From Antedon mediterranea (taxonomy: Eukaryota > Animalia > Echinodermata), in NCBI RefSeq assembly GCF_964355755.1, contig NC_092678.1:19671365-19735364 (forward strand): 64,000 bases of DNA. The letters are read 5' to 3'. Under the pieces are notes generated by a model. The model did no database searches and was not told the DNA's origin. It was given only the letters and a program-made list of their open reading frames with translations. Positions 1,172-64,000 of the stretch are shown piece after piece. Made by a program: the position numbers and the translations under genes. The first letter of the stretch is position 1. Each line of letters opens with the position of its first letter.

Positions 1172-30569
<29,398 letters not shown>

Positions 30570-34840: not shown

Positions 34841-36214
34841 GGAGGTGTGGGGAGGGAGGAAGGTGTGGGGACGGAGGAATGTGTGGGGAGGCAGGAAGGT
34901 GTGGGGAGGCAGGAAGGTGTGGGGAGGGAGGAAGGTGTGGGGAGGGAGGAAGGTGTGGGGAGGGAGGAAGGTGTGGGGAGGGAGGAAGGTGTGGGGGAGG
35001 GAGGAAGGTGTGGGGAGGGAGGAAGGTGTGGGGGAGGGAGGAAGGTGTGGGGGAGGGAGGAAGGTGTGGGGAGGGAGGAAGGTGTGGGGAGGGAGGAAGG
35101 TGTAGGGAGGGAGGAAGGTGTGGGAGGGAGGGTGGTGTGGGGAGGGAGGAAGGTGTGGGGAGGGAGGAAGGTGTGGGGAGGGAGGAAGGTGTGGGGAGGG
35201 AGGAAGGTGTGGGGAGGGAGGAAGGTGTGGGGAGGGAGGAAGGTGTGGGGGGGAGGGAGGAAGGTGTGGGGGGAGGGAGGAAGGTGTGGGGGGAGGGAGG
35301 AAGGTGTGGGGAGGGAGGGAGGAAGGTGTGGGGAGGGAGGGAGGTGTGGGGAGGGAGGGAGGAAGGTGTGGGAGGGAGGGTGGTGTGGGGAGGGAGGGAG
35401 GTGTGGGAGGGAGGGAGGTGTGGGGAGGGAGGGAGGTGTGGGGAGGGAAGGAGGTGTGGGGAGGGAGGGAGGTGTGGGGAGGGAGGGAGGTGTGGGGAGG
35501 GAGGGAGGTGTGGGGAGGGAGGGAGGTGTGGGGAGGGAGGGAGGTGTGGGGGGAGGGAGGGAGGAAGGTGTGGGGGGAGGGAGGAAGGTGTGGGGGGAGG
35601 GAGGAAGGTGTGGGAGGGTGGAAGGTGTGGGGAGGGTGGAAGGTGTGGGGAGGGTGGAAGGTGTGGGGAGGGTGGAAGGTGTGGGGAGGGAGGTTGGTGT
35701 GGGGAGGGAGGAAGGTGTGGGGAGGGAGGAAGGTGTGGGGGAGGGAGGAAGGTGTGGGGGGAGGGAGGAAGGTGTGGGGGGAGGGAGGAAGGTGTGGGGA
35801 GGGAGGAAGGTGTGGGGAGGGAGGAAGGTGTGGGGAGGGAGGGTGGTGTGGGGGGAAGGGAGGAAGGTGTGGGGAGGGAGGAAGGTATGGGGAGGGAGGA
35901 AGGTATGGGGAGGGAGGAAGGTGTGGGAGGGAGGGAGGTGTGGGGAGGGAGGGAGGTGTGGGGAGGGAGGAAGGTGTGGGGAGGGAGGAAGGTGTGGGGA
36001 GGGAGGAAGGTGTGGGGAGGGAGGAAGGTGTGGGGAGGGAGGAAGGTGTGGGGAGGGAGGAAGGTGTGGGGAGGGAGGAAGGTGTGGGGGAGGGAGGAAG
36101 GTGTGGGGGGAAGGGAGGAAGGTGTGGGGGGAGGAAGGTGTGGGGAGGGAGGAAGGTGTGGGAGGGAGGGTGGTGTGGGGAGGGAGGAAGGTGTGGGGAG
36201 GGAGGGAGGTGTGG
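34841..36214 (+). repeat. G-rich minisatellite, 18 bp unit GGAGGAAGGTGTGGGGAG, roughly 75 copies
   Basis: Directly visible; variants differ in G-run length and GGAA/GGGA/GGGT substitutions; almost no C on the + strand. Confidence 0.97.
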
Positions 36215-46302: not shown

Positions 46303-49300
46303 TTACATTACTTCATCTTTTGTGTTTTCTAATTCTTCACTTGGTTCCGCTTCACTGCACGTCATTTCAACATCACCATTTTCTTGAGTGTTTCCATTTG
46401 TTTCCTCCACTTCTTCAATTGGTTTCGGCATCACCTCAAGTTCTGGATGGTATTGTTTTAAACGGACATGCCACGCTACACTGATGCAAGCCGCCACAGT
46501 CTTGAACTGGTGTATAACGTTGCGGGGAATGAAGTATATGTCGTTGGCTCGTAAGCGTATTTTGGCATACCGAATACCCTCTCTTCTCATCTGGTTCAGT
46601 TTGGCATCCTCTACCCACTGAACGCACTGTAAATATAAAATTTTAAAATAACTAATTTTTAATTTAATAAAATATAATTTATATATTATAAATTTAATTA
46701 TCATTTGAGAGAACATAATAATAACTTTATTGACAAACACTTTTGGATCAGTGGCAACACACTCATTAGTGGTGCCGTCAACTTAAAGATGTATTGTCCC
46801 TTGAAACACAAAAAAATGAAGGTCAAAATATACTAAATTTTAATTGGCCATATCAAAGTAAAATTAAAGTTATTCACTTTAAGTCGAAAATTCAAGACAA
46901 AAACAACAATTTTACGTAATAGCTAAATTAATTTGATTACATTTCGTCTGGAAAACAAAGTAAACAAAGATTTCAAACCATGAGTATACATGCATGATGC
47001 TAATTAGGATTGTTTACAACTTGTCACGGTTGAGAAGGTGTTTTCACACAGATCGCGAGGAAGTTTTATGATTATGCATACAGAGCAGCCAAATATGCGC
47101 ATTGCATTATGAGATATGTTTTGATCGCAAACCTTGACTGGAAGTCAAAGTTATTTTTTGAACCAAAAAATTTCTGTATTTCAGTTAAATGATTTTTTTC
47201 CCAACTATTTTTTGGTGAAAGTTAATAACTATTATGATACTTCAAAATGACCCACTTTTTTTCGAAATCTTTTTACTTTTTTTTTTTTGGAATTTGACAA
47301 AGGGACAATACATCTTTAAACAACATACAAATGAACATTATAAACCAAACATGTATGAATGTACAATATAACCTATTAATATAAAATATCGAGATAAAAA
47401 TCAATATATTTATACAGCTAGTGTGACATTCCAGAATTTAATAAAAAATGTGATATATCATAAAAACATTTAAGAGACTAATTTTTTTCTGGCTGTTTTA
47501 ATTATTGTTCTGATTTAGCTTTTTGCTTATTTTTTTTTCTATCTCCATTGAGATTAAGCCACAGATACCCACAGCACTGATATTTTTCAGTAATTTGCCT
47601 TTGGATTTAATATAAATATAATATATAGACACATAAGAACCCATCTCTCGCACATGCTAGTCCAATATCCCTTACCATTACACCATACCAACACTTACCT
47701 GAGAGACAGGAGGTTCATGCAGATCAAGTTGCAGGGTTTCCGTGACATTTAAGAAGTCTGCAGAGTGAAAACAAACGACATCTTTCACATCAAGATCATC
47801 AACCGTATCCATGTCTTTACCATGGACTGCTTGCAGAACTCCAACGGCAGCTGTTGTCTGTCGGTCAAATCCTTGACCAATGTGGTCAGCGTGGCATCGC
47901 GTCCGGTCAGGAACGAGTAACTCTCTTGGTTCCGAAGCTCGGGGACGGTACATCAAATTTTTCAATTCATTTACACCAGTTCTAGTGTTCAGGAAATAAA
48001 TATTTGTGTTAAATTTTGATTTGAGGAATAAAAAAAAATATATGTAATAAATGTTGAATTATTGTAGGTTACTAATACTAGTCAATGCTAACTGAAAGTT
48101 TTTAACAATGCAAAAGCACATCTTAAAGGGCTATGGAAGAGGAGACCTGGTCACGAAGACAAAATACTGTACTGGATCAAGATTTGGGTTTAAAAGATGC
48201 ATTCAAATGCTATTATAGGTCCCCAGGTACTAAAAAAACATTATCTGATGTGATAATTAATCGGCATTTTTAAAAAATCAAAATTAATGTTTGGTTCCCA
48301 CTAGAGATGCAACAAAAGGACATGACACAACGTAAGTGATTTGACCGAATCACAGACAATGGATTATTCAAACATTCAACTGGCTTGCATTGTTTCTATA
48401 TTTTTGTGTTGCATCCTAGCAAGCGTTTTAACACCGTTATTTGTTTTATTTTTATTTTAATATAATTTCTCTTTACCTCCTTTTGGCTTTTGAGGGTGAC
48501 TTGGGCAAATCAGCTGTTGGTATCATTTGTTCTCCTGGACGAACCCATATGATTGGACCATCGTTACTATGACAGCGCTTTTCCATCTTCACTGAAGATA
48601 GTGGACCCCACGGCATGACACGGTGCAGAAATGAATTTTCCTCTAACATGTCTAAAATATCTTCGAAATAATCTCCCGTTTCCTCGTTGACTGTTCCTAC
48701 GAGGCTCATCTGCAGCATGGGTCCAGATTTATACGTACCATTACAGTACGAACGGTGAACATCGTTACGGAAATCATTGACAGTTTTTGTTATCAAATCG
48801 TGTTTAGTACCCAACAGTTCGGTTTTGATGACCGTAGATGGGTGTCTGCAGGCTAAATAGTCAATAAGATTTGGAATGTTGTTGACAGCGTCATGAACGA
48901 TACCCATCACATGATCACAAATGCCATCGGACGATTCACCATACACAATTTTAAAATACTCTTCAACAAATTTATCCAACTCCTCTCCTTTTAAATGCTG
49001 GATCTCTTTACCGTACACATGTACGACACTAGCGCCCCCATTTGATTGTTTTTCGATGTGGATATATTTGCTAAATGGTGAGTTTGCCTCTTCGTGGCTG
49101 TCCAATATCATTTTAATGTTGTCTGTGGTCGTTTTATCCGAGACCTCCATCTTCATTGGTTTCTGAACAGTGACTACTGGAGAAGAAGGCGATATACTGG
49201 TTTTAACAGTATCCTGAGATGTACATGTTGTAGCATCGACCATGACTGGCCTATGTCTGTGATGATGGTGGTGATGATGCTTGTGTTTCTTAGCTCTTCT

Positions 49301-51051
49301 CATCATCGTTAAACATTCTTTCTTAATGTGCAACTTAAGTTCTGGTGACCCATCCTTTTTCACGATCCTTGAAGTGGCATACTTTACAAGTGGCCATGAA
49401 TCACCTGTTTAGTAAGCAGAAAAATATATAATGAAAACAAATATTAATAAAATATAATATTAATTTATTGTACAACTGTGCATTTATATTATTATTATTA
49501 ATATTATGAAAATAAATTATTTATTATAGAGCAACATTGAACTACAAACAGGCCTAAAGGTAAAGCAAGCAAAGTGTAACTTCACTGTACTGACACTAGG
49601 CCTAGTAACAGGCCTAGCTAAATCTGACAGTACAGGGTTAGGGCGGTCCTACTACTAAACACCACCAGATACCAACTAGAGCAATAAATCCTACCACCAG
49701 AGAGCAGCCACCTGTTTGGAATTGATTATTAAGGGTATATTGCAAATTTCAAAGCTTAATTTTTTCAGAAACTGATAAAATTGAAGTTTAAAGTTGAATT
49801 TCTCGCGGTCGTATTCCAGAACCGAATGCGTTTGATAAACATAGCAACGAAACGAATGCATTCATCCGTGTCTCTTGTGTATTGTATTGAACGGTCAACT
49901 ATGAGGCAGGATTTATTGCTCTAGTAGGTATCTGGTGGTATCTGGTGGTGTTTAGTAGGACCCGCCCGGGTTAGGTTGTTACTGTACAGACAGTAGAGTG
50001 TAAATGTTAATGTATGATACAAATTCAGACACAATTAAATATACAGTTACTGTAGGCCTAATTAATAGTATAATCATAATCAAAGATAAACCAAAGATAA
50101 TAAATTAAAAAATGTCTAGGATACACTAAAAACTACTGGCCGAGCGGTTAAGACAGTGGAACCGTAATTACGTAGCCATAACATCGGCAAGGGTTCGAGG
50201 CTCACTCACTCCATGGTTCTGGTGGTAGAACGAGTCTTCTCGGATAAGGACTATAAACCGTAGGTCCAGTGTACACATCTAGCTGGTGTGCACTTTAAAG
50301 AACCTAGTACATCTTTCGAGACGAGTAGGGGGTTACCCCGGTGTATTAGTACATTACAGCCACTGATCACCAACTGGGCCCTCTGGGAGACCAGTCTTTG
50401 ACTGAAGAGGTTACTCAGTATAAATATATATTCAATCAATCAATCACAATAGTCGTAGCTAGGCCTAGTAGCCTAGTAGTCTTACTTACCATTATGAACC
50501 TGCTTAGGCTGATCTTGTTGCTGTAGCACCTGCGTCCCTGTTGATGGTGGTGAGCTTTCATTTCGTAGGCTAACAGCAGCAGGAGCTGCAGCTGTCGCTG
50601 GTGGTGGTGTTTGATTTTGTAATTGCTCTTCACTTCGACGTGCTGGCGATTGCCTTCTTATTTTTGCAGCAGATGGAGGAGGAGAGATATCGGACTCGCT
50701 TGTACTTGAATACCGTTGTTTATAATCGGTATACATATCCTCCGTGTAGCCCGAGCTCGATAACCTTCGATAGTTATGCTGTACCCGCCTTCTCTTGCCT
50801 GTCTCCATCACCATCGCAGGCCCCAATTTGCTAGGCGAAACGGTGGTGGGAGTAGGCGGGCTAGCTTCATAAACAACCAGCGTATCTGATTGTCGAGTGT
50901 CTCCATTAATTTTAAATCGACTACTTACGACAAGTGAATTATTTGGAGTGCTAACTTTGTCATCTTCGTCACACTTTGGACTTGATAAATCATTTTCAGA
51001 CATCATATCTTCGTTTACATCACGTTTTCTTTCTCGTTCAGACGCCATCAT
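46303..51051 (-). CDS. RSBN1: RSBN1/RSBN1L (KDM9, DPY-21-like) JmjC-like lysine demethylase, 4 exons, 698 aa
   Basis: Exons 51051-50490, 49404-48477, 47981-47699, 46626-46303 join in frame (2097 nt). Family motifs [82 protein letters not shown]; HxD...H metal-ligand pattern present. Confidence 0.94.
46787..47315. mobile_element. Non-autonomous Kolobok-like element (TTAA TSD) in RSBN1 intron 3
   Basis: TTAA|AGATGTATTGTCCCTT ... AAGGGACAATACATCT|TTAA. Confidence 0.82.
49641..49967. mobile_element. MITE with ~55 bp TIRs in RSBN1 intron 1, flanked by GGGTTA duplication
   Basis: GGGCGGTCCTACTACTAAACACCACCAGATACC..CTAGAGCAATAAATCCT mirrored at ~49907-49967; GGGTTA at 49635-49640 and 49968-49973. 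Confidence 0.8.
50137..50446 (+). mobile_element. tRNA-derived SINE with Deu/Nin-domain-like core, antisense in RSBN1 intron 1
   Basis: A box TGGCCGAGCGG, B box GGTTCGAGGC; core GGATAAGGACTATAAACCGTAGGTCC...TTAAAGAACC...GAGTAGGGGTTACCCCGGTG resembles the AmnSINE1/Deu domain as I recall it; (CAAT)n tail. Confidence 0.8.
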
Positions 51052-52215
51052 GGTTCATCGCTTACCCGGATGTCGTGTACCAGACGTTTTGCAGGATTTT
51101 TTATTAATTAATAAATAAGTGTTTTTCGTAACAATTGAGTTGGTAGCTATCAACGTTAAATGATAATAATGATTATAATTGTTACAAAATGAATATGCAT
51201 ACTACCCCTTTTTTCACATTACTGAAAAATACTGTAACTGACTGTAAAATTACGTTATGTCTGGCCACACAAGACTACGAATAATTATGCATTTTTCTAC
51301 ATACCGCCCTCAACAATTTATCCCGACGCAGATTTTTTAACTTCTTGTGACAAACAAAATTGTATACTCAAAAAACATAGTATTGAGAATCGATCTGAGA
51401 TGATGTATTTTTTTTGTATGGTCCAAAGTGTCCAATCCCGTCTATGCTGATTACGATGTGTACCATAAGTGTAATAATAATAATGTTATAGTCAATTACT
51501 ACATTACTTACTGTATAGCATATACACACGCTTAAAAAAAAGTATATCTGCTGAGTTTGATGAAACATGACTATGGCTATATCTATGTAGACATTTTAAA
51601 ATTATTTTCTCCCCGGCTTCGTGTCTTGTACTTCATATATATATATATATTTCTATGTTTTCGTAATTATTATTTTATGTTTATTGCCGAAATGAATACA
51701 ATTATTACGTCTTCCCAGAGTGTACCTACATTACTGTATAGCATATACACACGCTTAAAAAAAAGTATATCTGCTGATTTTGATGAAACATGACTATGGC
51801 TATATCTATGTAGACATTTTTAAATTATTTTCTATGTACAGTATAACAACATTACGGATAGATGCATCACAAAATAGGCTTAACATCGCAAAGTAAACTT
51901 CGTGTTGATTACACAGAAATAACAAACCAAATACTGTACTTCAAAATATATTGTTTAATGTTATCAAAAGAATACATTTTTATTTATTTTTTAAGCATTT
52001 TCATGTCACCTAGTTATTCAATATTATGCCTATATGACGTATTTATTGTGCACAAAAAAAAAACACGTTGTGCGTCGGCGCGGTAGAGTTTTTAGAATGT
52101 TACGCGCTGTTCTTATTCTGCTTGAATAGAGTGTATCTTTCTAAAAAATATATAATTATCTACGGCACGCCTCTATGCGTAACACAGTAACTATCATTAA
52201 TATGAACTAATAGAA
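51052..52215. promoter_or_regulatory. Putative bidirectional promoter / 5' UTR interval between RSBN1 and the HhH-CaaX gene
   Basis: Divergent start codons about 1.16 kb apart; contains a ~103 bp direct duplication (51508-51610 / 51731-51832). TSSs cannot be determined from sequence. Confidence 0.55.
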
Positions 52216-53964
52216 ATGTCTAAGAGTATTGACATAAATTATAGTACAGCTAGAGGTCTTTGTAAGATACCAGGCGTGGACCCAGTATTGGCGAAAAGAA
52301 TAATAACTTACCGACGGAAACTATGCGGTTTCGACAGCATAGATCAACTTATGCAAGTTAGTGGCCTAACACGTGGAAAATATAAAAAGATTGCAGATAA
52401 CGCGTTTGTTGGAAAAAAGCAAACTCCATCTAAACTACACAATTCTAGGCCTACGCCTAAGCAAAATTCGAAGAATAAAACAGTAGAATGGAATTTGGAA
52501 GACAATTTAATAATACCTATAAGGTCGACTCCCAGGCCCAACAGAAAATCTTCACGAAATAGTAGCAAGAAGGTTTCGATCACTCAACCGACAGATTCAA
52601 TGGTGCAGGATGTTGGAACTCAATACTATAAAAATGGTATGTAGGCCTATCTAGGCCTATGTCTAGGCCTAATGATTTTGCAAATGATGATGATGCAAAT
52701 TATATCTAGGAGCCTAGGGCCTAGGTAGCCCAGGCCTATGGTAGGCCAATTCATGTTTCCATTCCTTACAGTTATACTAAATAAAAAGACTTGTGTTACA
52801 TTGTTTACTGGTTGTCTGCAGGGGGAAGATGTTATACTAGGCCTAGAGTCCATAGTTTCGTGGAATGTTCCAAACCACTTTGAATGCTAAACGTCACTGA
52901 TAGGCATAGGCATATATGCCTAGGCCTATACCTATATTCTGGGCCTGAGACGTGACCAAGATATGAAATCATACTTTTTCATTTCAGGTACAAGAAAGTG
53001 TGCTACGGGAACAAAGAAACCCAACAAACAAACTGTTGCCAAACAACGTAGGCCTAATAGATTAGCTGATGAAACTTTACAGACACCTATCATGAACTTC
53101 TACATATCGCCAGGACAGTCAGGACATATATCTGGTCAACCGATGTCCGGTCAAACACAAACAGGACAACTATTGCCAGGAAATCTTCCGTCGGGACAAC
53201 AGTCAACTTTCTTAAATACATCGACTTTTCCTTATAGTCCTACACCTCTTCAATTTGGAAATAACCCAAAAGACTTCAAACATGTTTATAGTTTCGACAA
53301 AGAGGACTATTATACATTCCAGCCATCGTCGACATATGATACTGAAAATATAAAAGAGCATACAACTCCTAAAACGCCTCAAGCACAAACGGAGCAGCAA
53401 AGTCGTGAAGAAAGTTTTGACTTTTCAAACAATCTTATGTTCACAAAACCATTGACGTCATCAACTCCTAAAAAACGCCGAAAGAGACAAAATAAAAGGA
53501 GAAATCAAGATATCTCTGCAAATTCTAACGATTATTCAGAATACAAAGACGTACAAACAAATTCAGATAATAACCAAAACGTCAGTAACGATCTCCAAAT
53601 TATCAATGAGTCCGACAACAAAGCTCGCGGAATTTATAAGGAAAATTGTAACGCTATAAAACAGTGGTTGAGAGGCGTAGCACCATACGTGTTCAGTGAC
53701 TATGAAACAACAGCAACAACAGATAGCGAGGTTGACTTAAAACAACAAGAACAATCTGCAAATTCTACATCAAAAAGAGTTAAACACAGAAGAAAAACCC
53801 GTTCAAAATCAAAACCATCAGAACGCCATACTACGCAGTGCACATGCGCAAATGAGAGAAAGGAAAAACGGAACTTGAAGCAACATAAGGAAAAACGAAA
53901 CACCGAAGATGAAGATAATATTAAAAATCAATATGTTAATTCTTGGCCATGTGTTCTGATGTAA
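52216..53964 (+). CDS. Uncharacterised protein, 465 aa: N-terminal ComEA-like helix-hairpin-helix (HHH_3-type) domain, low-complexity basic tail, C-terminal CaaX (CVLM)
   Basis: Exons 52216-52636 (donor G|GTATGT) and 52988-53964 (acceptor TTTCAG|) join in phase 1 (1398 nt). N-terminus IDINYSTARGLCKIPGVDPVLAKRIITYRRKLCGFDSIDQLMQVSGL follows the tandem HhH consensus (ININTAS.EEL..LPGIG...A..II.YR...G.F.S.EDL..V.GI). AATAAA at 54007-54012. Confidence 0.85.
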
Positions 53965-54206
53965 GTGGTAAAGGCCAAACAATGTTCAATTCATTTTATT
54001 GCTATAAATAAAGTTAGATTAATCTAGTATTAATATAATTGTGTCAAACATTTCCGCATTTCATTTGTTTTTAGTCGATAGCGGTTAGCCCATTAGCGAG
54101 GGTATACGCAGTTAGCTTATTGGCATTTTCTTAGAAACGCTAGGACGCTAGTATTATGATGCGGAATTAAATTGTTGACATGCACATTATACATTACTAC
54201 GAAACT

Positions 54207-57200
54207 TTAGCCTCGGGGATGTACGACTGTTTGATAGGGCCTAGGAAAGTGAGTAAGTTGGCACGTTCCTGTGATTGCTACGTTCCCCGTCTCTCCTGGG
54301 GCTTTCTCGAACTTATAATTCTGAATTAACCACGAAAAGATGAGAAAGATCTCGGCCTTAGCTAATGCTTCTCCAACACACCCTCTTCGACCGGTGGAAA
54401 ACGGCAGAAAACTCGGAAGACGTTGCTTAATAGTTCTTGTCGAATCCAAGAATCGCTCTAAGAAAAAGAAAATATATTAACAATACAAAATATACAAATA
54501 AATGTTGATTTGAATGGAAAGAATATTTTAAACGATTCCATTCAATTAAATTTCATTCGAATCAAGATTATTTTCATATGACTTTCTCATTAACTATTTG
54601 TATTTAATAGATCAGGGTTGGTATTTATCAATATTAATTTGCTTATATTGTTGCTTAAGATGAAATATTTAAGAAGTGCTTAAGCATATAGCAATGTCTT
54701 AGCATAAAAATTGTCTTAGGCAAATATCGAGGGATTCTTAAGCTCTGCCTTCACTATCAAACGTTATGTGACCTAAAAATGTGATGTGCCGAAATAGGTT
54801 AGTGATATGATATCGTGTAGGATATGGACTATCACACCTTATATTTTAAGATATACTTGTTGTCAAACTAGTTTGATAGCCTAAACAAGGCTTTAGAGAG
54901 GCCGTGTCATAATTATTCTACTGCAGTAACTGCAGTATACTACAATATATTTACTCTTTGAGTAATCATTATATGATATAACAATTGCTAATATTTTGAA
55001 TATTAATTACCTTTGTACATAACAAATATAAAGCAAAAACAAAATAATAACAAAAATAACTTTGTATTATTACGATGTCATATCATTGCCATGGGCATAT
55101 CACTACCATATTTGGGCACATCACACTTTTTTGTCACGTAAAGTTTGATAGCGTGTAGACAACGCTTTAGAATAAGACAAGGTCTTGCCCAGCTACCGTG
55201 CCTTGCCTACTTTTTTATGAGATCTAGTGCACAATCGATATCAATATACCTATAATTGTTACCTGGTTTGAACTTTTCTGGAGAAACCCAGTATTTTGAG
55301 TCATTGTGAAGTGCCCAATGATTTATGAATACTATCGTGCCTACAGGTACATTGTAATTGCCTGAAAGAAAAAGGTACGCATTAAGCCGAATTCACACTA
55401 GGCGCATATTAATTGTTCGCGCGAATCGACAGCATCCGCTTATACGCATGCGCTTTTGATTCGCGCAAACAAATTCGCATAGTGGAAAATCGTTTTTAAG
55501 GGTCTTTGAAACGTCAGGGTTCCGGTTCGGCCCCAGCAGCAAACCAAAAACGTTCTATGTGTACGCTAAATTCCCTCTTATTCAGTATAAGATAACTACA
55601 AAAGCCTAATCCTGCCACATTATGAATATGAATAACTAAAAACACCGGACGAGGACGAGAGCTTGTTTAGTTCTTACCGATTGTGGAGTCTTCAATAGCA
55701 CGATGAGGTAAGCCTAAAGGTGAAGCCGTTCCGTATCTCATAATCTCCATGATCACAGCCTCCGTGTATGGTAACTTCCCACGATCGCTTAGTCTTGGCG
55801 GTCTGTCTCCAATGACGTCGTCAAGTTCCTTCTTTATTTTCTCCTGTACATCCGGGTTGTCCATCATGCATGCAACAGCCCAAAGTAATGATGCTGTTGA
55901 TGTGTCTGTACCAGCTTAAAAAAATGTGATTAAAATAAATAATTAATTTTAATCAGGGAAGAAATAAATTGAAATTTTTTTTCTAAACTGTAAATATCGG
56001 TAAACGATGCACGACGCCAAAAAACTGCAGTTAAAATATTCCCATTTTGAAAACTTATGTTTATATACCCAAGACTTTGTAAATTGTAGATCATATGCAG
56101 TTAATAAATGAGTATTATGATGATGTGTTCACGGAAACCAAACGTTTATGATGGGCGTTTATTCCAATCAGAGCGTTTTAACATATTTATTTATGTACAA
56201 AAATAGAGGAACATACCAAAGAAGAGATCTGATACAATATGTTTGATATGCACGTCGGTTAATTTACTGGCAGAACTATCTGTCTCCAGTTCATCTTTCT
56301 GAGTTTTTAATAGAAGCTCAATTACGTCATTTGCAGGTTCATCTAAAATTAATAATGAACATGGCTGTAAGAAATATTATACTGTACCCCTTTTACACCG
56401 CCAGTAAAAATAGAAGATGTGAACAAAAATTGGGTTTCCTGAAAGATCTAATCTTAAAGGCAAAAAGATAGACGCTATCGATCGCATGGTAAAATGACTA
56501 TTTATAAATAAAATTAAAAACAAAACTAGACCAATGGTCGTCCAATTGTCGGGGCTAATACAAGCTAATATCGTTGTGGTTTGTAAGGCCTTGTCTACAC
56601 TATCAAACTTTATGTGACAAAACAATTGCGATGGACATCATGATGTCATACCACTACCGTATTTGAGAATATCACTACTATATTTGGGCATATCACACTT
56701 TTTTGATAGTGTAGACAGAGCTTATTATGGTGGTCTAGATAATATCAATACCTGGGGAGTATGTTCTCAAATGCTGATTCACTTCTGTCAAAATTATAGC
56801 AAAATATTCCAGAGTTAATTTTCGAAATAGGCCTAAGTTCATTGATGTACTTGGTAAAAATCTAGCGGCTGGAATAAAGTCTAATATAGAACAGTTACCA
56901 ATGGCGTCATTGATTTCGTCTATTACCTTCATTAATTTATGAAGCTGGGGATCCTTGAAGTTGTATCTAAAATTTTAAAAACACACAAATAGCAAAAGAA
57001 GACTTAAAGGTTAAAAGATGTCCTTGAACACTCGACTAATGAAGTATATCAAAATATGTAATATAGTGCGTACTATTGCACGCATGTGACCCACAATCAT
57101 CCAATCAAATGACAGGAATTTATTTAGGTGTTATATAAACACAATTATAGACTTATAGATACAGAAAATGTGAAACTTGTTATTGTTATTCAGGTCCTCA

Positions 57201-58890
57201 AGCTTAACTGGAAAGTAAGGACATTTGGATTAGGCCGCGGTGCAGCGCCTACCAGACCAACAAACCGAGAGACAATCCCTACTCTTTAATCGTATCTATC
57301 AATATGAGATAGATATAATTTGAAGATGTGTGGACACAGATATTATCTTAGCTTACTCATGTCCAAAGCACATAGACGCGATAATGTTGTAGACTGCCAA
57401 TTTGATCACTTCCTTTGGATCAAATGGTGTGCCAGCTTTTTCTGAAAGAACATCTCCGACTTTCGGTATTACTTTTTCTACCAAACTCTCCAAACCGTCA
57501 GTACAAAATTTTCTGTAAGCCAAAAAAAAAACGTGATCAATGAACTAAAACTGAGCTACATCTAAATATTCAACCAATAAATTTAACATATCTTTTATCC
57601 TATTTTTTCCCCGATAAATAATTAAACATTATTACGTACTTACCTGATAGCTAAATGTGCTAACTTTCGGTGGAATTTCCATGTTGGTGTAGGTTGAGCA
57701 AAAACTATGTCTTTTCCGTGATCAGAAGACAAGTCAACTATAATGAAGATACATTTGGTCAGATGTTTGGTAACCTAAACTGACGCAATATTGTACTATA
57801 TACTACTAGCAAGTGTTCGCATTGTACTTAAAGTACAAATTACGTTAGTTACTAGGGAAAACATCTGGCAATTACTCAACAAAGCTCAACTCAACATTAG
57901 CTAATGATCTTCCTGAACGTACATGATATTAAGTTATTTAAATTAAGTGTAGCCCTATCTTTATAATAATGTGCAAGTTCCACACTTTCAGCCTTCGGGC
58001 AGCTTGTTGTCCATGTTTTATAGAATAAATATAAAATCAATAAATGATTTTAACACATCTAAAACATCACGAGAATGGATTCGCTTTAGCCTATAACACT
58101 TTGACTGCCAAACACGAAGATCTTCGTGTTTGGAAACACAACGCTTAACTGCCAAACACGGAGATCTCCTTGAGTAAAAGGTCTTTTTTATAATTAGGCC
58201 TACGATAGATATACATAAAACATAACTAATTACAGGCTATTTGAAACAAATCGGCCTAAGACTGGACGATTGGAAACAACTTACAAGTATATGAAGGATG
58301 TCGTCCACTAAATTCATTAAATTTGGTCAGTAAAGCTTCTTGCGTAAGGTCGTGGTTGTTGATAACGACTCCCCAATACCATCCAAATTTTACTGAAAAA
58401 ATTGGTCCGTACTTGAAAGTCATGTCCTTAAAGGTATTCCATAGCTTTTTCTTTTCTAACAATACTGTATAACAAAAAAAAATATTTCGGCAAGATTATA
58501 CAGTACATCAACATGACCACATAATATACAATTTTTAAACGGAAAATAGGGGGAAACAAAGTATATATTCCTTAATAGTAACCAACAAGCTTGAAAAACT
58601 TTTTCAATAACCAAAACAAATGTGGTGTGTCCTAGTATGGTAGTGATCATATCCAAATATGGTAGTGATGTGACATCATGTCTATATAATGGGCACATCA
58701 AATTCATTGTCACATAAAGTTTGTAGTGTAGGCTTGATATTTAAGGCTTACTTGGAACATTCCCTATGATAGGGTAAGGCGTTGGACCAGGCGGCATTCC
58801 AGATGGACGGCGAATGTTGAAATACATCCACGTAAACAACAGGACGATCAGCACTACGACTAGAGACATCGTACTTGTACACTCCAACAT
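54207..58890 (-). CDS. Cytochrome P450, clan 2 (CYP17A1-like), copy 1, 9 coding exons, 498 aa
   Basis: Exons 58890-58752, 58464-58285, 57737-57644, 57512-57357, 56966-56752, 56342-56217, 55914-55678, 55361-55263, 54457-54207 join in frame (1497 nt). N-terminal TM anchor, [12 protein letters not shown] hinge, WKFHR C-helix, AGTDT I-helix, EIMR K-helix, PERF, heme motif [10 protein letters not shown]. Confidence 0.95.
56586..56723. mobile_element. PIF/Harbinger-like MITE family A (TIR AGCTCTGTCTACACTATCAAAC), representative copy
   Basis: ~130-150 bp palindromic element with internal TGTGATGTGCCC...GGGCACATCACA. Other copies at ~9143-9270, 18822-18975, 19597-19764, 28158-28288, 42152-42281, 44152-44273, 44831-44937, 54739-54893, 55072-55168, 58584-58733, 61195-61290, 61396-61489, 63396-63532. 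Confidence 0.82.
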
Positions 58891-60029: not shown

Positions 60030-60090
60030 ATGAGAGAAAGGAAAAACGAAACAGTTGGAGATACTGTAGTTATATTAACAATCAATATGT
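60030..60090 (+). pseudogene. Degenerate fragment of the 3' end of the HhH-CaaX gene carried by the P450 duplication
   Basis: ATGAGAGAAAGGAAAAACG (60030-60048) is identical to 53852-53870; ATATTAACAATCAATATGT (60072-60090) matches 53918-53936 at 18/19. Confidence 0.7.
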
Positions 60091-60411
60091 CGACGCTACA
60101 AATCACTATGTCGGTCGGTTGATCGGTCGGTCGGTTGGTTGGTAAACACTAACTTGAGCACGTGACTGCAGCCATGTATATGGCCATGTTTCAATTGGTT
60201 TGTAGAAGATCTTCCTGAAATGTAATGTATATTTTGCATTAAATTTGCATAAATTAACATAACAAAAATGATTCATCTGTTTTCTCCTTACAGCCAACTT
60301 CTAATATCCTATCTGCTTCATTACATTGTACACGTGTTACTGGCAATGTGTTTTTAGTCGATAGTGGTTTAGCACTTTATTCGCGGTATACGCTGTTAGC
60401 TTATTGCCTTT

Positions 60412-60528
60412 TCAGTCGTGTGCAACGCAACTCTACAGCTCACTATGTCGGTCGGTCGGTCAGTCGGTAGGTTGGTCGGTAAACACTAACTTGAGCAAGC
60501 GACTGCATCCATCATGTATATGGCCTTG
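60412..60528 (+). mobile_element. Short DINE/HINE-like repeat copy in the 3' flank of P450 copy 2
   Basis: Same family as 3731-3845; interrupts sequence homologous to 54068-54130. Confidence 0.7.
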
Positions 60529-60776
60529 TATAATAAAAAAATACTTGTGTATATTTAGCTTCAGCATATTATAAACGATAACGATTTTCTACATTAATTG
60601 TTAATAATGTTTCAATCACATTTATAAGTATAATTGTATTCAGTTCAACAAAACAAAACTAGGCTAGACCGAAAAAAAAAATAGATACTCTTATGTAAGG
60701 ACGCTATAGTATATGATGCTATCGTATATGATGCGAAATTAAATTGTTGACAGGCCTCTATATATTAACTACGAAA

Positions 60777-63700
60777 CTAGCCTCGGGGATGTACGACTGT
60801 TTGATAGGGCCTAGTAAAGTGAGTAGGTTGGGGGATCGTTCCTGTGATTGCTACGTTCCCCGTCTCTCCAGGAGCTTTCTCGAACTTAAAATTCTGAATT
60901 AACCACGAAAAGATGAGGAAGATCTCAGCCTTAGCTAATGCTTCTCCAACACACCCTCTACGACCGGTGGAAAACGGCAAAAAACTCGGAAGACGTTGCT
61001 TAATAGTTTTTGTTGAATCCAAGAATCGCTCTAAAAAAAAGAAAATGTACTATGCTTGCAATACACAATATACAAATGAATGTTGATTTGAAAAGAAGGA
61101 ATTTAAAAAATGTTGTTTGAGTCCAGATTATTTTCATATGATTTCCTCATTGAATAATTGTACTCGATAGATCAGGGATAGATCATGGGATTCTTAAGCT
61201 CTGTCTACTATTGTCTACAAACGTTATGTGACCAAAAAAATGTGAAGTGCCGAACAAGGGTAGTAATATGATATCATCGTGTAAGATATGGAAAAATCAA
61301 ATTTGTTTTTCATATAATTCTTACCTTTAGTAACAAACAAAGCAAAAATAATAATAATAATAATAATAATAAAAATAACGTCATATGTATTATTACGATG
61401 ATGTCATATTTGCCATATTTCATTATTACCATATTTGGGCATATCACACTTTTTTTGTCACATGAAGTTTGATAGCGTAGACAGAGCTTTATAATAAGAC
61501 AAGGCCATGCCCACCTACCGTCCCTTGCCTACCTTGTTTGTTGATTATTTTTATGAGATCTAGTGCACAATCGATATCAATAGACCTATAATTATTACCT
61601 GGTTTGAACTTTTCTGGAGAAACCCAGTAATTTGAGTCATTGTGAAGTGCCCAATGATTTATGAATAATATCGTGCCTACAGGTACATTGTAGTTGCCTG
61701 AAAGAAAAAGGTACGCATTAAGTGTCTTTGAAACATGCTACGGCACAGTTCCGGTTCGTCGCCAGAAACAAACCAAATCGAACGAGAATGTTTTAATTCA
61801 CCACTCTCCGCGAGGCTACGCGCCGGACCGAAAACTACACCACGTGTCGAAATTTCGACATAGCAAAACAAAAATAAAAACAAAAAATATAACAAATATG
61901 TCGAAATTTCGACATACGTATGTCAAAATTTCGACATAGTAGAAAAAAAACAAAACAAAAGAGTTGGTCTCTTAGGCCTAGATAATATAGATCTTGGGCT
62001 TAACGAAGTTACACCTAATTAATTCCCCTATTTACCCACTGGAACTTTAGGCGTTCCATACTTGGCGGCCAAAACGAACGGCGGCCGATGTGCACTGTTT
62101 TTGTTTTATTTTATTTAGCTATTTATATTCATGTGGCAGGATTAGGCTTTCATAGATAACATTCTACAGTTTTTAATTAAATATAAAGAGAGAAAATGTT
62201 TGGTACAGTAACATTCAATTTTGATTCTTCATATTATGACTACTTTTGCCTATTTACTACATTTTTTGTCATCCTTTTAATTACGACGTTTTATTTTGTA
62301 TTTTTTAACGTATTTATTGTATACTAAAGTGATTTGTCCAGGATGTATAACATCAATGTGACCTAATAGATGGATACAGCTACATAGCTCACTATGTCGG
62401 TCGGTTGGCTGGTCGGTCAGTCGGTTGATCGGTAAACACTAACTCAATTTGAGCACGCGACCGCAGCCATGTATATGGCCTTGTTATCCATGATCTTAGG
62501 TAGAGGAACGCACGAACACGGGACGACGAAAACGATAGCTTGTTTAGTTCTTACCGATTGTGGAGTCTTCAATAGCACGATGAGGTACACCTAAAGGTGA
62601 AACGGTTCCAAATCTCATAGTTTCCATGATCACAGCCTCCGTATATGGCAACTTCCCACGATCGCTTAGTCTTGGCGGCCTGTCTCCAATGACGTCATTA
62701 AGTTCTTTTTTTATCTTCTCCTGTACATCCGGGTGGTCCATCATGCATGCCACAGCCCAAAGTAACGATGCTGTCGATGTGTCTGTACCAGCTATAAGAA
62801 ATGTGATTAAAATAAAATAATTAATTTTAAGTGTAATATTACGTAATTTGATTTTTGAACCTGATATTTAATATTTTTTTACAATTTCTAAATATAACTA
62901 TGCACGCCAAAACAAGATCATTATGCAGTTAATAAATGTGTATTATGATGTGGCGGGGCGTTTATTGAAGAAAAAACAAACGGTTATGGGCGTTTATTCA
63001 AATCGGGGAGTTTAACATATTTATTTATATAAAAAAATAAAGGAACATACCAAAGAAGAGATCTGATACAATCTGTTTGATATGCACGTCGGTTAATTTA
63101 CTGGCAGCGCTATCTGTTACTGTCTCTAGTTCATCTTTCTGAGTTTTTAATAGAAGCTCAATCACGTCATTTGCAGGTTCATCTAAAATTAAGCATTAAC
63201 ATAATTGTATTAGAAGTATTGGTAGATGTGAACAGAAATTGGGTTTCCTTAAAGATCTAATCTTAAAGGCAAAAAGATAGACGCTATCTATCGCATGGTA
63301 AAATGACTATTTATAAATAAAATAAAAAACCAAACTAGACTAATGGTCGTCCAATTGTCAGAACTAATACAAGCTAATATCGTTGTGGTTTGTAAGGCCT
63401 TGTCTACACTATCAAACTTTATGTGACAAAACAATTTTGATGGACATGATGATGTCATACCACTACCGTATTTGAAAATATCACTACTATATTTGGGCAC
63501 ATCACACATTTTTGATAGTGTAGACAGAGCTTATTATGTGGTTTAGATAATATCAATACCTGGGGAGTATGTTCTCAAATGCTGATTCACTTCTGTCAAA
63601 ATTATAGCAAAGTATTCCAATGATAATTTTCGAAATAGGCCTATATTCGCTGCTGTACTTGGTAAAAATCGAGCGGCTGGAATCAAGTCTACTATAGAAC

Positions 63701-64000
63701 AGTTACCAATAGCGTTATTGATTTCGTCTATTACCTTCATTAACTGATGAAGCTGGGGATCCTTAAAGTTGTATCTAAAATATAAAAAAAAAACACAAAT
63801 AGAAAAAAAATATTAATTTGTAACATACATTCAGGTTAAAAGATGCCTTTGAACACCCGACTAATGAAGTATTCTGGTCATAATGCTCATATAAAATATG
63901 TAATAAGATTGATATAATTTGAAGATGTGTGGACACAGATATTAAATTAACCTACTCATGTCCAAAGCACATAGACGCGATAATATTGTAGACTGCCAAT
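60777..64000 (-). CDS. Cytochrome P450, clan 2 (CYP17A1-like), copy 2, 5' part outside the window
   Basis: Exons (64000)-63956, 63774-63560, 63182-63051, 62791-62555, 61697-61599, 61030-60777, with the same intron positions and phases as copy 1. AGTDT, ETMR, PERF and [10 protein letters not shown] intact; only in-frame indels (+6 nt, +3 nt). Confidence 0.93.

Follow-up and report, generated by a model that had tools for sequence, protein, structure and literature searches.

A 64,000-nucleotide stretch of the genome of the feather star Antedon mediterranea (contig NC_092678.1, positions 19,671,365 to 19,735,364; hereafter the window) carries an intact gene, single-copy at 80% likeness, whose 465 amino acid product begins with a tandem helix-hairpin-helix (HhH) domain, continues as a basic and predicted disordered tail and ends in the CaaX box CVLM. 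The parts and their logic are known; their combination appears to be undescribed, in that no HhH + CaaX protein is described in the literature surveyed, which consisted of main texts largely from outside the subscription journals. By analogy with Drosophila Kugelkern, we tentatively favour, at somewhat less than an even chance, a prenylated protein of the inner nuclear membrane with weak, charge-driven chromatin binding.

The gene consists of two exons and one intron, with a coding sequence of 1398 nt that ends SWPCVLM-stop:

52216..52636, plus strand: first coding exon, holding codons 1-140 and one further nucleotide; the base at -3 of the ATG is A (matching RefSeq protein)
52637..52987, plus strand: phase-1 GT-AG intron of 351 nt (sequence)
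52988..53964, plus strand: coding exon 2, aa 141-465 and the stop codon, K/S/T/N/Q-rich and predicted to be disordered (open reading frame, model)

The initial annotation had described a spliced 465 amino acid product, and RefSeq holds the same protein: the two are identical, under accession XP_071961581.1 (Antedon mediterranea, uncharacterized), in a cluster of one. This entry is probably the genome's own annotation, that is, a second gene call and no proof of expression. The 324 open codons of exon 2 exceed the longest frame (209) seen in any of 2000 dinucleotide shuffles.

The N-terminal domain was identified as follows:

52222..52410, plus strand: ComEA/EEPD1-type tandem HhH domain, aa 3-65, with hairpins G20-V21-D22 and G50-L51-T52 and a net charge of +7 (Pfam, PDB matches, model)

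That a ComEA-type tandem HhH domain stands at the N-terminus, as first proposed, is borne out at the level of both sequence and fold. Pfam HHH_3 (PF12836) matches aa 3-61 with an E-value of 5.7e-14 (52 bits against a curated cut-off of 27), placing the domain among the ComEA-type (HhH)2 domains, and the fold agrees: a domain model, for which the alignment comprised 49 of 149 bacterial-type matches, has a pLDDT of 92.7 and superimposes on ComEA (8dss) with a TM score of 0.84 and an rmsd of 1.1 Å, the Foldseek E-values being only ~1e-3 as the domain is so small. Core HhH residues (N8, G20, I29, R33, V48 and G50) are kept. Among PDB sequences human EEPD1 is the first match (9yi2, E 1.3e-9), followed by ComEA and PsbU, and the structural neighbours of the model include PsbU, a component of photosystem II that is not known to bind DNA, together with the ERCC1-XPF dimerisation region. 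The best viral fold matches of the model (52216-52425) are giant-virus HhH proteins (Hyperionvirus, Indivirus) at E about 5e-4 and 29% identity, no closer than the bacterial ones.

The protein resembles ComEA (Bacillus/Geobacillus 8dfk and 8dss; Vibrio) in its HHH_3 fold and, for the Gram-positive form, in being built of anchor, linker and HhH domain. The order is reversed here, however, and there is no signal peptide or N-terminal transmembrane anchor, the HhH domain beginning at residue 3 and the highest 19-residue hydropathy of the protein being 0.63. The residues that serve ComEA in DNA uptake are also replaced: the first hairpin reads G-V-D rather than G-h-G, and V24 and L25 occupy the positions of the key lysines (Vibrio K63, B. 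subtilis K164). Across 512 aligned bacterial domains, 81% retain the second glycine of that hairpin and 5% have Asp, as this protein does at D22. In Vibrio ComEA, where G60, K62 and K63 correspond to D22, V24 and L25, G60E or loss of K62/K63 is reported to abolish function (PMC3879209), and in B. subtilis K164 and K199 are reported as the two critical lysines (PMC9747964); counted along the PDB alignment these fall on L25 and A60. Leucine at position 25 is found in 53% of the multi-HhH matches.

The initial annotation had taken the HhH domain to bind DNA. The basic character of the domain, at +7, still speaks for this, and the claim is otherwise weakened by the GVD and GLT hairpins, by V24/L25 and by the behaviour of EEPD1, whose two HhH domains alone are reported not to bind DNA stably (PMC12988330). 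The same findings, taken with the fold neighbours PsbU and the ERCC1-XPF dimerisation region, would suit a prenylated nuclear-envelope protein in which the HhH domain has lost DNA binding and become a protein-interaction or self-association module. We think this unlikely: bacterial domains typically carry far less positive charge (median net charge -1, 90th percentile +4 across 377 domains), and the first hairpin of EEPD1 is likewise non-canonical, yet deletion of one of its HhH domains is reported to impair DNA binding by the full-length dimer (PMC12988330). DNA binding by the feather-star domain is plausible, though it would be weak and, to judge from its residues, non-canonical.

The protein is not EEPD1, as had been stated at the outset on the grounds that no nuclease domain is visible. 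EEPD1, a metazoan protein, is the best PDB match to the HhH domain and likewise combines HhH domains with a lipid anchor, but it is described as having two (HhH)2 domains and a myristoylated Gly2 (PMC12988330), along with an EEP domain, whereas here there is a single HHH_3 stretch, Ser2, no EEP domain and a C-terminal prenyl signal; downstream in the window there is no plus-strand frame of at least 100 aa.

Beyond the HhH domain the protein is predicted to be disordered apart from one helix, and has the following features:

53461..53502, plus strand: basic cluster S299-R312, a candidate nuclear localisation signal (NLS) after a full CDK consensus, T300-P-K-K
53617..53679, plus strand: predicted amphipathic helix, aa ~351-371 (about 337-371), the one part to which the single-sequence model gives a pLDDT over 70
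53773..53898, plus strand: second and third basic clusters, K403-K416 (53773-53814) and R431-R444, candidate NLS or membrane second signal

Modelled from its single sequence, the full-length protein gives a poor result (pLDDT 43), and for the tail (aa 142-465) there is no Pfam match above cut-off and no PDB match. A transmembrane segment is absent by the hydropathy value given above. The basic clusters picked out in the initial annotation are present, the densest having 9 K/R in 12 residues (p=0.003 against shuffles of the tail), and K302-R307 is the best NLS pattern, fitting the monopartite form. Full CDK sites are not enriched (2 sites, p=0.21); minimal S/T-P sites number 10 (p=0.025).

Basic, NLS-like clusters with a terminal CaaX and no transmembrane segment are the layout of Kugelkern and of the tails of B-type lamins. 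The likeness to Kugelkern is one of layout. Kugelkern is characterised by conserved blocks of sequence and by a putative coiled coil at its N-terminus, the place of the HhH domain in this protein; and, unlike in the lamins, no intermediate-filament rod or lamin-tail domain was detected by Pfam, the model being mostly disordered. Nor is there a BAF match in Pfam, and BAF is absent from the fold matches listed. The expectation that an NLS joined to a CaaX box acts at the nuclear membrane is backed by chimeras (GFP-NLS-CaaX) that do so (PMC2947476); for Kugelkern itself, that paper reports no evidence of direct chromatin binding.

A farnesyl group next to a polybasic stretch can also act elsewhere, being the plasma-membrane signal of K-Ras4B (PMC13524398), and EEPD1 with its lipid anchors is reported to be located at the plasma membrane and not in the nucleus (PMC5321112). 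With a net charge of +14 over aa 400-446, the feather-star protein might thus be a prenylated protein of the plasma or cytoplasmic membrane, its basic clusters a second signal of the K-Ras4B type and its C-terminal anchor a replacement for the N-terminal one of EEPD1. Like the K-Ras4B hypervariable region, it has a Met-ending CaaX with basic residues upstream. Unlike K-Ras4B it has no GTPase domain, and its basic patch is not beside the cysteine: the nearest cluster ends ~18 residues before it, behind an acidic stretch, and the last 25 residues carry a net charge of -1. The fit of K302-R307 to the monopartite NLS pattern also counts against a plasma-membrane protein, which we regard as improbable. 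If the mRNA ends at CVLM, a nuclear location in preference to the plasma membrane is rather likely and, given both of these, so to a like degree is the binding of nucleic acid.

Whether the mRNA ends at CVLM turns on a short stretch around the stop codon:

53950..53964, plus strand: CaaX box C462-V-L-M465 and TAA; a single synonymous allele occurs at the Leu codon (sequence; PMC11152559)
53961..53966, plus strand: GTAAGT splice-donor consensus overlapping Met-stop, with T at -1 (GAT/GTAAGT; sequence)
53995..54000, minus strand: AATAAA, candidate poly(A) signal of a convergent cytochrome P450 gene (stop 54207-54209) and its only minus-strand AATAAA
54007..54012, plus strand: AATAAA, candidate poly(A) signal of the HhH-CaaX gene (sequence)
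54059..54074, plus strand: strong acceptor 113 nt downstream of the 53961 donor, with no other of that strength inside 540 nt

The C-terminal SWP-CVLM-stop of the initial annotation is there, and CVLM has the form of a CaaX box, with Cys at -4, aliphatic residues at a1 and a2 and Met at X. Ends of the type C-aliphatic-[VIL]-[MSQAL] occur at 6 of the 6057 six-frame stops in the window, and this is the only one ending in Met. The predicted potential for prenylation is backed by a yeast reporter, in which human FTase and GGTase-I both accept CVLM as a substrate (PMC11152559), and from its sequence the terminus is likely to be prenylated in the animal. Because CVLM is also a GGTase-I substrate, an FTase inhibitor alone may give a false negative.

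No other site in 52216-54100 fits the donor consensus as well as the one that overlaps the stop, and the overlap is itself suspicious because G-TAA-GT is rare: only 34 of the 4120 TAA triplets (0.8%) lie within GTAAGT. CaaX ends are, moreover, reported to be switched by alternative splicing in annelid lamins (PMC10125929). Were the donor used with the acceptor at 54074, the terminal Met would be replaced by Ile-Arg and the canonical CaaX spacing lost. The CaaX box would then not be the real or main end of the protein, or it might be an unselected accident, leaving a soluble, basic HhH protein of the nucleus. Several observations make this less likely again than either of the alternatives above. 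The T at -1 is in contrast to 11 donors of the window, all chosen by eye where an exon evidently ends, in which -1 is G ten times and A once; a Met-ending ideal CaaX is much rarer by chance than a donor overlap; and the three strong downstream acceptors add merely 2, 3 or 22 residues and open no domain. The AATAAA that the initial annotation had noted shortly past the stop lies at 54007, between donor and acceptor, yet 9.5% of random 60-nt stretches of the window contain one. The two convergent poly(A) signals (53995-54012) stand back to back, 6 nt apart, and the 3' ends of the two genes would overlap by tens of bases. The RefSeq model stops at CVLM under a name without isoform suffix. The weak T at -1, the back-to-back poly(A) signals, the RefSeq end and the lack of any domain beyond the acceptors together favour the stop over the donor, and by our own estimate, which was not computed, the main mRNA probably ends in CVLM.

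Contigs from five runs and two samples (two animals, one of the samples a possible source of the window) cover the gene, and the frame is free of stops and frameshifts in both animals' contigs. At 80% likeness only allelic contigs cover it, making it single-copy at that level. Nine coding SNPs were found, none within aa 1-66. One is synonymous and lies in the Leu codon of the CaaX box, and the only coding indel is of 3 nt. Overall five SNPs change a residue and four are silent, against 79% residue-changing by chance, a difference that is not significant (p=0.10). The contig of one run, which we guess to be RNA, is unspliced through the intron and flanks and thus carries no information on expression or splicing.

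A relic of the C-terminal part of the gene lies downstream of it:

60030..60090, plus strand: remnant of codons ~429-457, decayed and frameshifted (local score 50; the best of 1000 shuffles reaches 32)

Together with 3' flank, the decayed copy of the last codons spans 60030-60412, and a 66-nt island within it (54063-54128 against 60346-60412, 81%) is better kept than its surroundings and contains the 54074 acceptor. The copy travelled with the tandem duplication of the P450 gene, for which dS is about 0.26 (125 codons), so the tail must be older than that duplication; the copy at 60030 has decayed and the tail of the gene ending at 53964 has stayed open. We considered, and rejected, the idea that the copy keeps W-P-C, since a repeat inserted there, and present in five places, accounts for most of the letters in question; this insertion hides whether the last codons were kept. 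The repeat is a ~95-nt dispersed element with a GGTC/GGTT microsatellite core, with copies in the window at 60095-60192, 60433-60529, 62379-62485, 23236-23304 and 3772-3846.

Relatives of the protein were sought in several collections. The word-index searches covered proteins of at least 246 aa and need shared 5-residue words, which makes them weak for diverged animal proteins. One such search gave no orthologue among 112 candidates except the protein itself; 2598 candidates held the protein itself and one bacterial-type multi-HhH protein, and 10 candidates the protein itself alone. The best 150 of 6914 matches were the protein itself and 149 bacterial-looking multi-HhH proteins, and animal single-HhH relatives may be hidden beyond these. 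An atlas search gave no feature match for the whole protein and otherwise only ComEA/EEPD1-type clusters, while a metagenome scan (two ComEA-like loci) and a phage tblastn search (two weak matches) yielded no orthologue. As the searches are weak, their failure to find orthologues is no demonstration of absence.

That no orthologue was retrieved and that selection within the species is not significant would suit a decaying fragment without function (a truncated EEPD1 duplicate or a piece of a mobile element), but this is very improbable given an exon with 324 open codons, more than in any of 2000 shuffles, a proper intron, a frame intact in two animals with single-copy cover at 80% likeness, and a tail that predates the P450 duplication and stayed open while its copy decayed.

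The surroundings of the gene are varied. The P450 pair lies on the minus strand at 54207-57740 and ~60780-64000, the nearer member convergent with the HhH-CaaX gene; over two exons (the 125 codons) dN is about 0.025, far below the dS, and both copies thus look constrained. An intron of the P450 contains a very high-copy repeat with inverted arms (54716-55250), with summed contig depth of up to 6.5e5. On the other side is a divergent gene (minus strand, 46306-51051) that starts 1165 nt from the HhH-CaaX ATG and encodes a His-rich basic stretch with a weak JmjC match (E 0.0013). We take its product to resemble RSBN1, which is reportedly a spermatogenesis-linked chromatin protein in the mouse. 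Between the divergent genes there is a 103-nt direct duplication (51508-51610 and 51731-51833, 98%). Further away are a family C GPCR gene (plus strand, 1160-~30300; ANF_receptor, NCD3G and 7tm_3) that is metabotropic-glutamate-receptor-like, and a G-rich 18-nt minisatellite (34843-36214, 74 copies) with at least 380 open codons in all six frames.

In the Kugelkern-like reading that we prefer, the protein would be made in soluble form and prenylated at CVLM, and its basic clusters would direct nuclear import. The prenyl lipid would then hold it on the inner nuclear membrane, as for Kugelkern or a lamin tail, where the basic second HhH motif and the tail may touch chromatin weakly and in a non-canonical manner through their surface charge, crowding on the membrane providing avidity. 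T300-P-K-K could serve as a mitotic release site.

The initial annotation described the linking of chromatin to the envelope as a job normally split between different proteins. This was overstated: S. pombe Lem2 is a natural one-chain tether, chromatin is also tethered when the non-specific DNA binder Sso7d is artificially joined to a helix of the inner membrane (PMC13201548), and EEPD1 is a lipid-anchored HhH protein (PMC5321112). Lem2 and the Sso7d tethers resemble the feather-star protein in joining a DNA-binding domain and an inner-nuclear-membrane anchor in one chain, and differ from it in using transmembrane helices and a LEM or Sso7d domain where it has a prenyl group and an HHH_3 domain. 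For Bqt4, the accessible part of PMC6379675 makes no statement on DNA binding. APETALA1 is said to be a DNA-binding transcription factor that carries a prenyl group.

A bolder form of this idea, which we hold to be doubtful, is that HhH domain, disordered basic tail and CaaX define an undescribed family of crinoids and bivalves, dating back to the first bilaterians and overlooked because it is absent from model animals, with soluble, prenylated members that act as one-chain tethers between chromatin and envelope and in which the splice donor on the stop codon could switch the anchor off.

Only the combination of the parts is new, the parts themselves being ordinary, and the DNA-binding step is doubtful. 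If the reading is true, animals would have a further route for attaching chromatin to the nuclear envelope, in which a DNA-binding fold is anchored reversibly by a lipid and neither a filament nor a transmembrane helix is involved. An unnamed protein of invertebrates would thereby acquire a function, and the question of how links between chromatin and membrane shape nuclei could be addressed with a simple construct.
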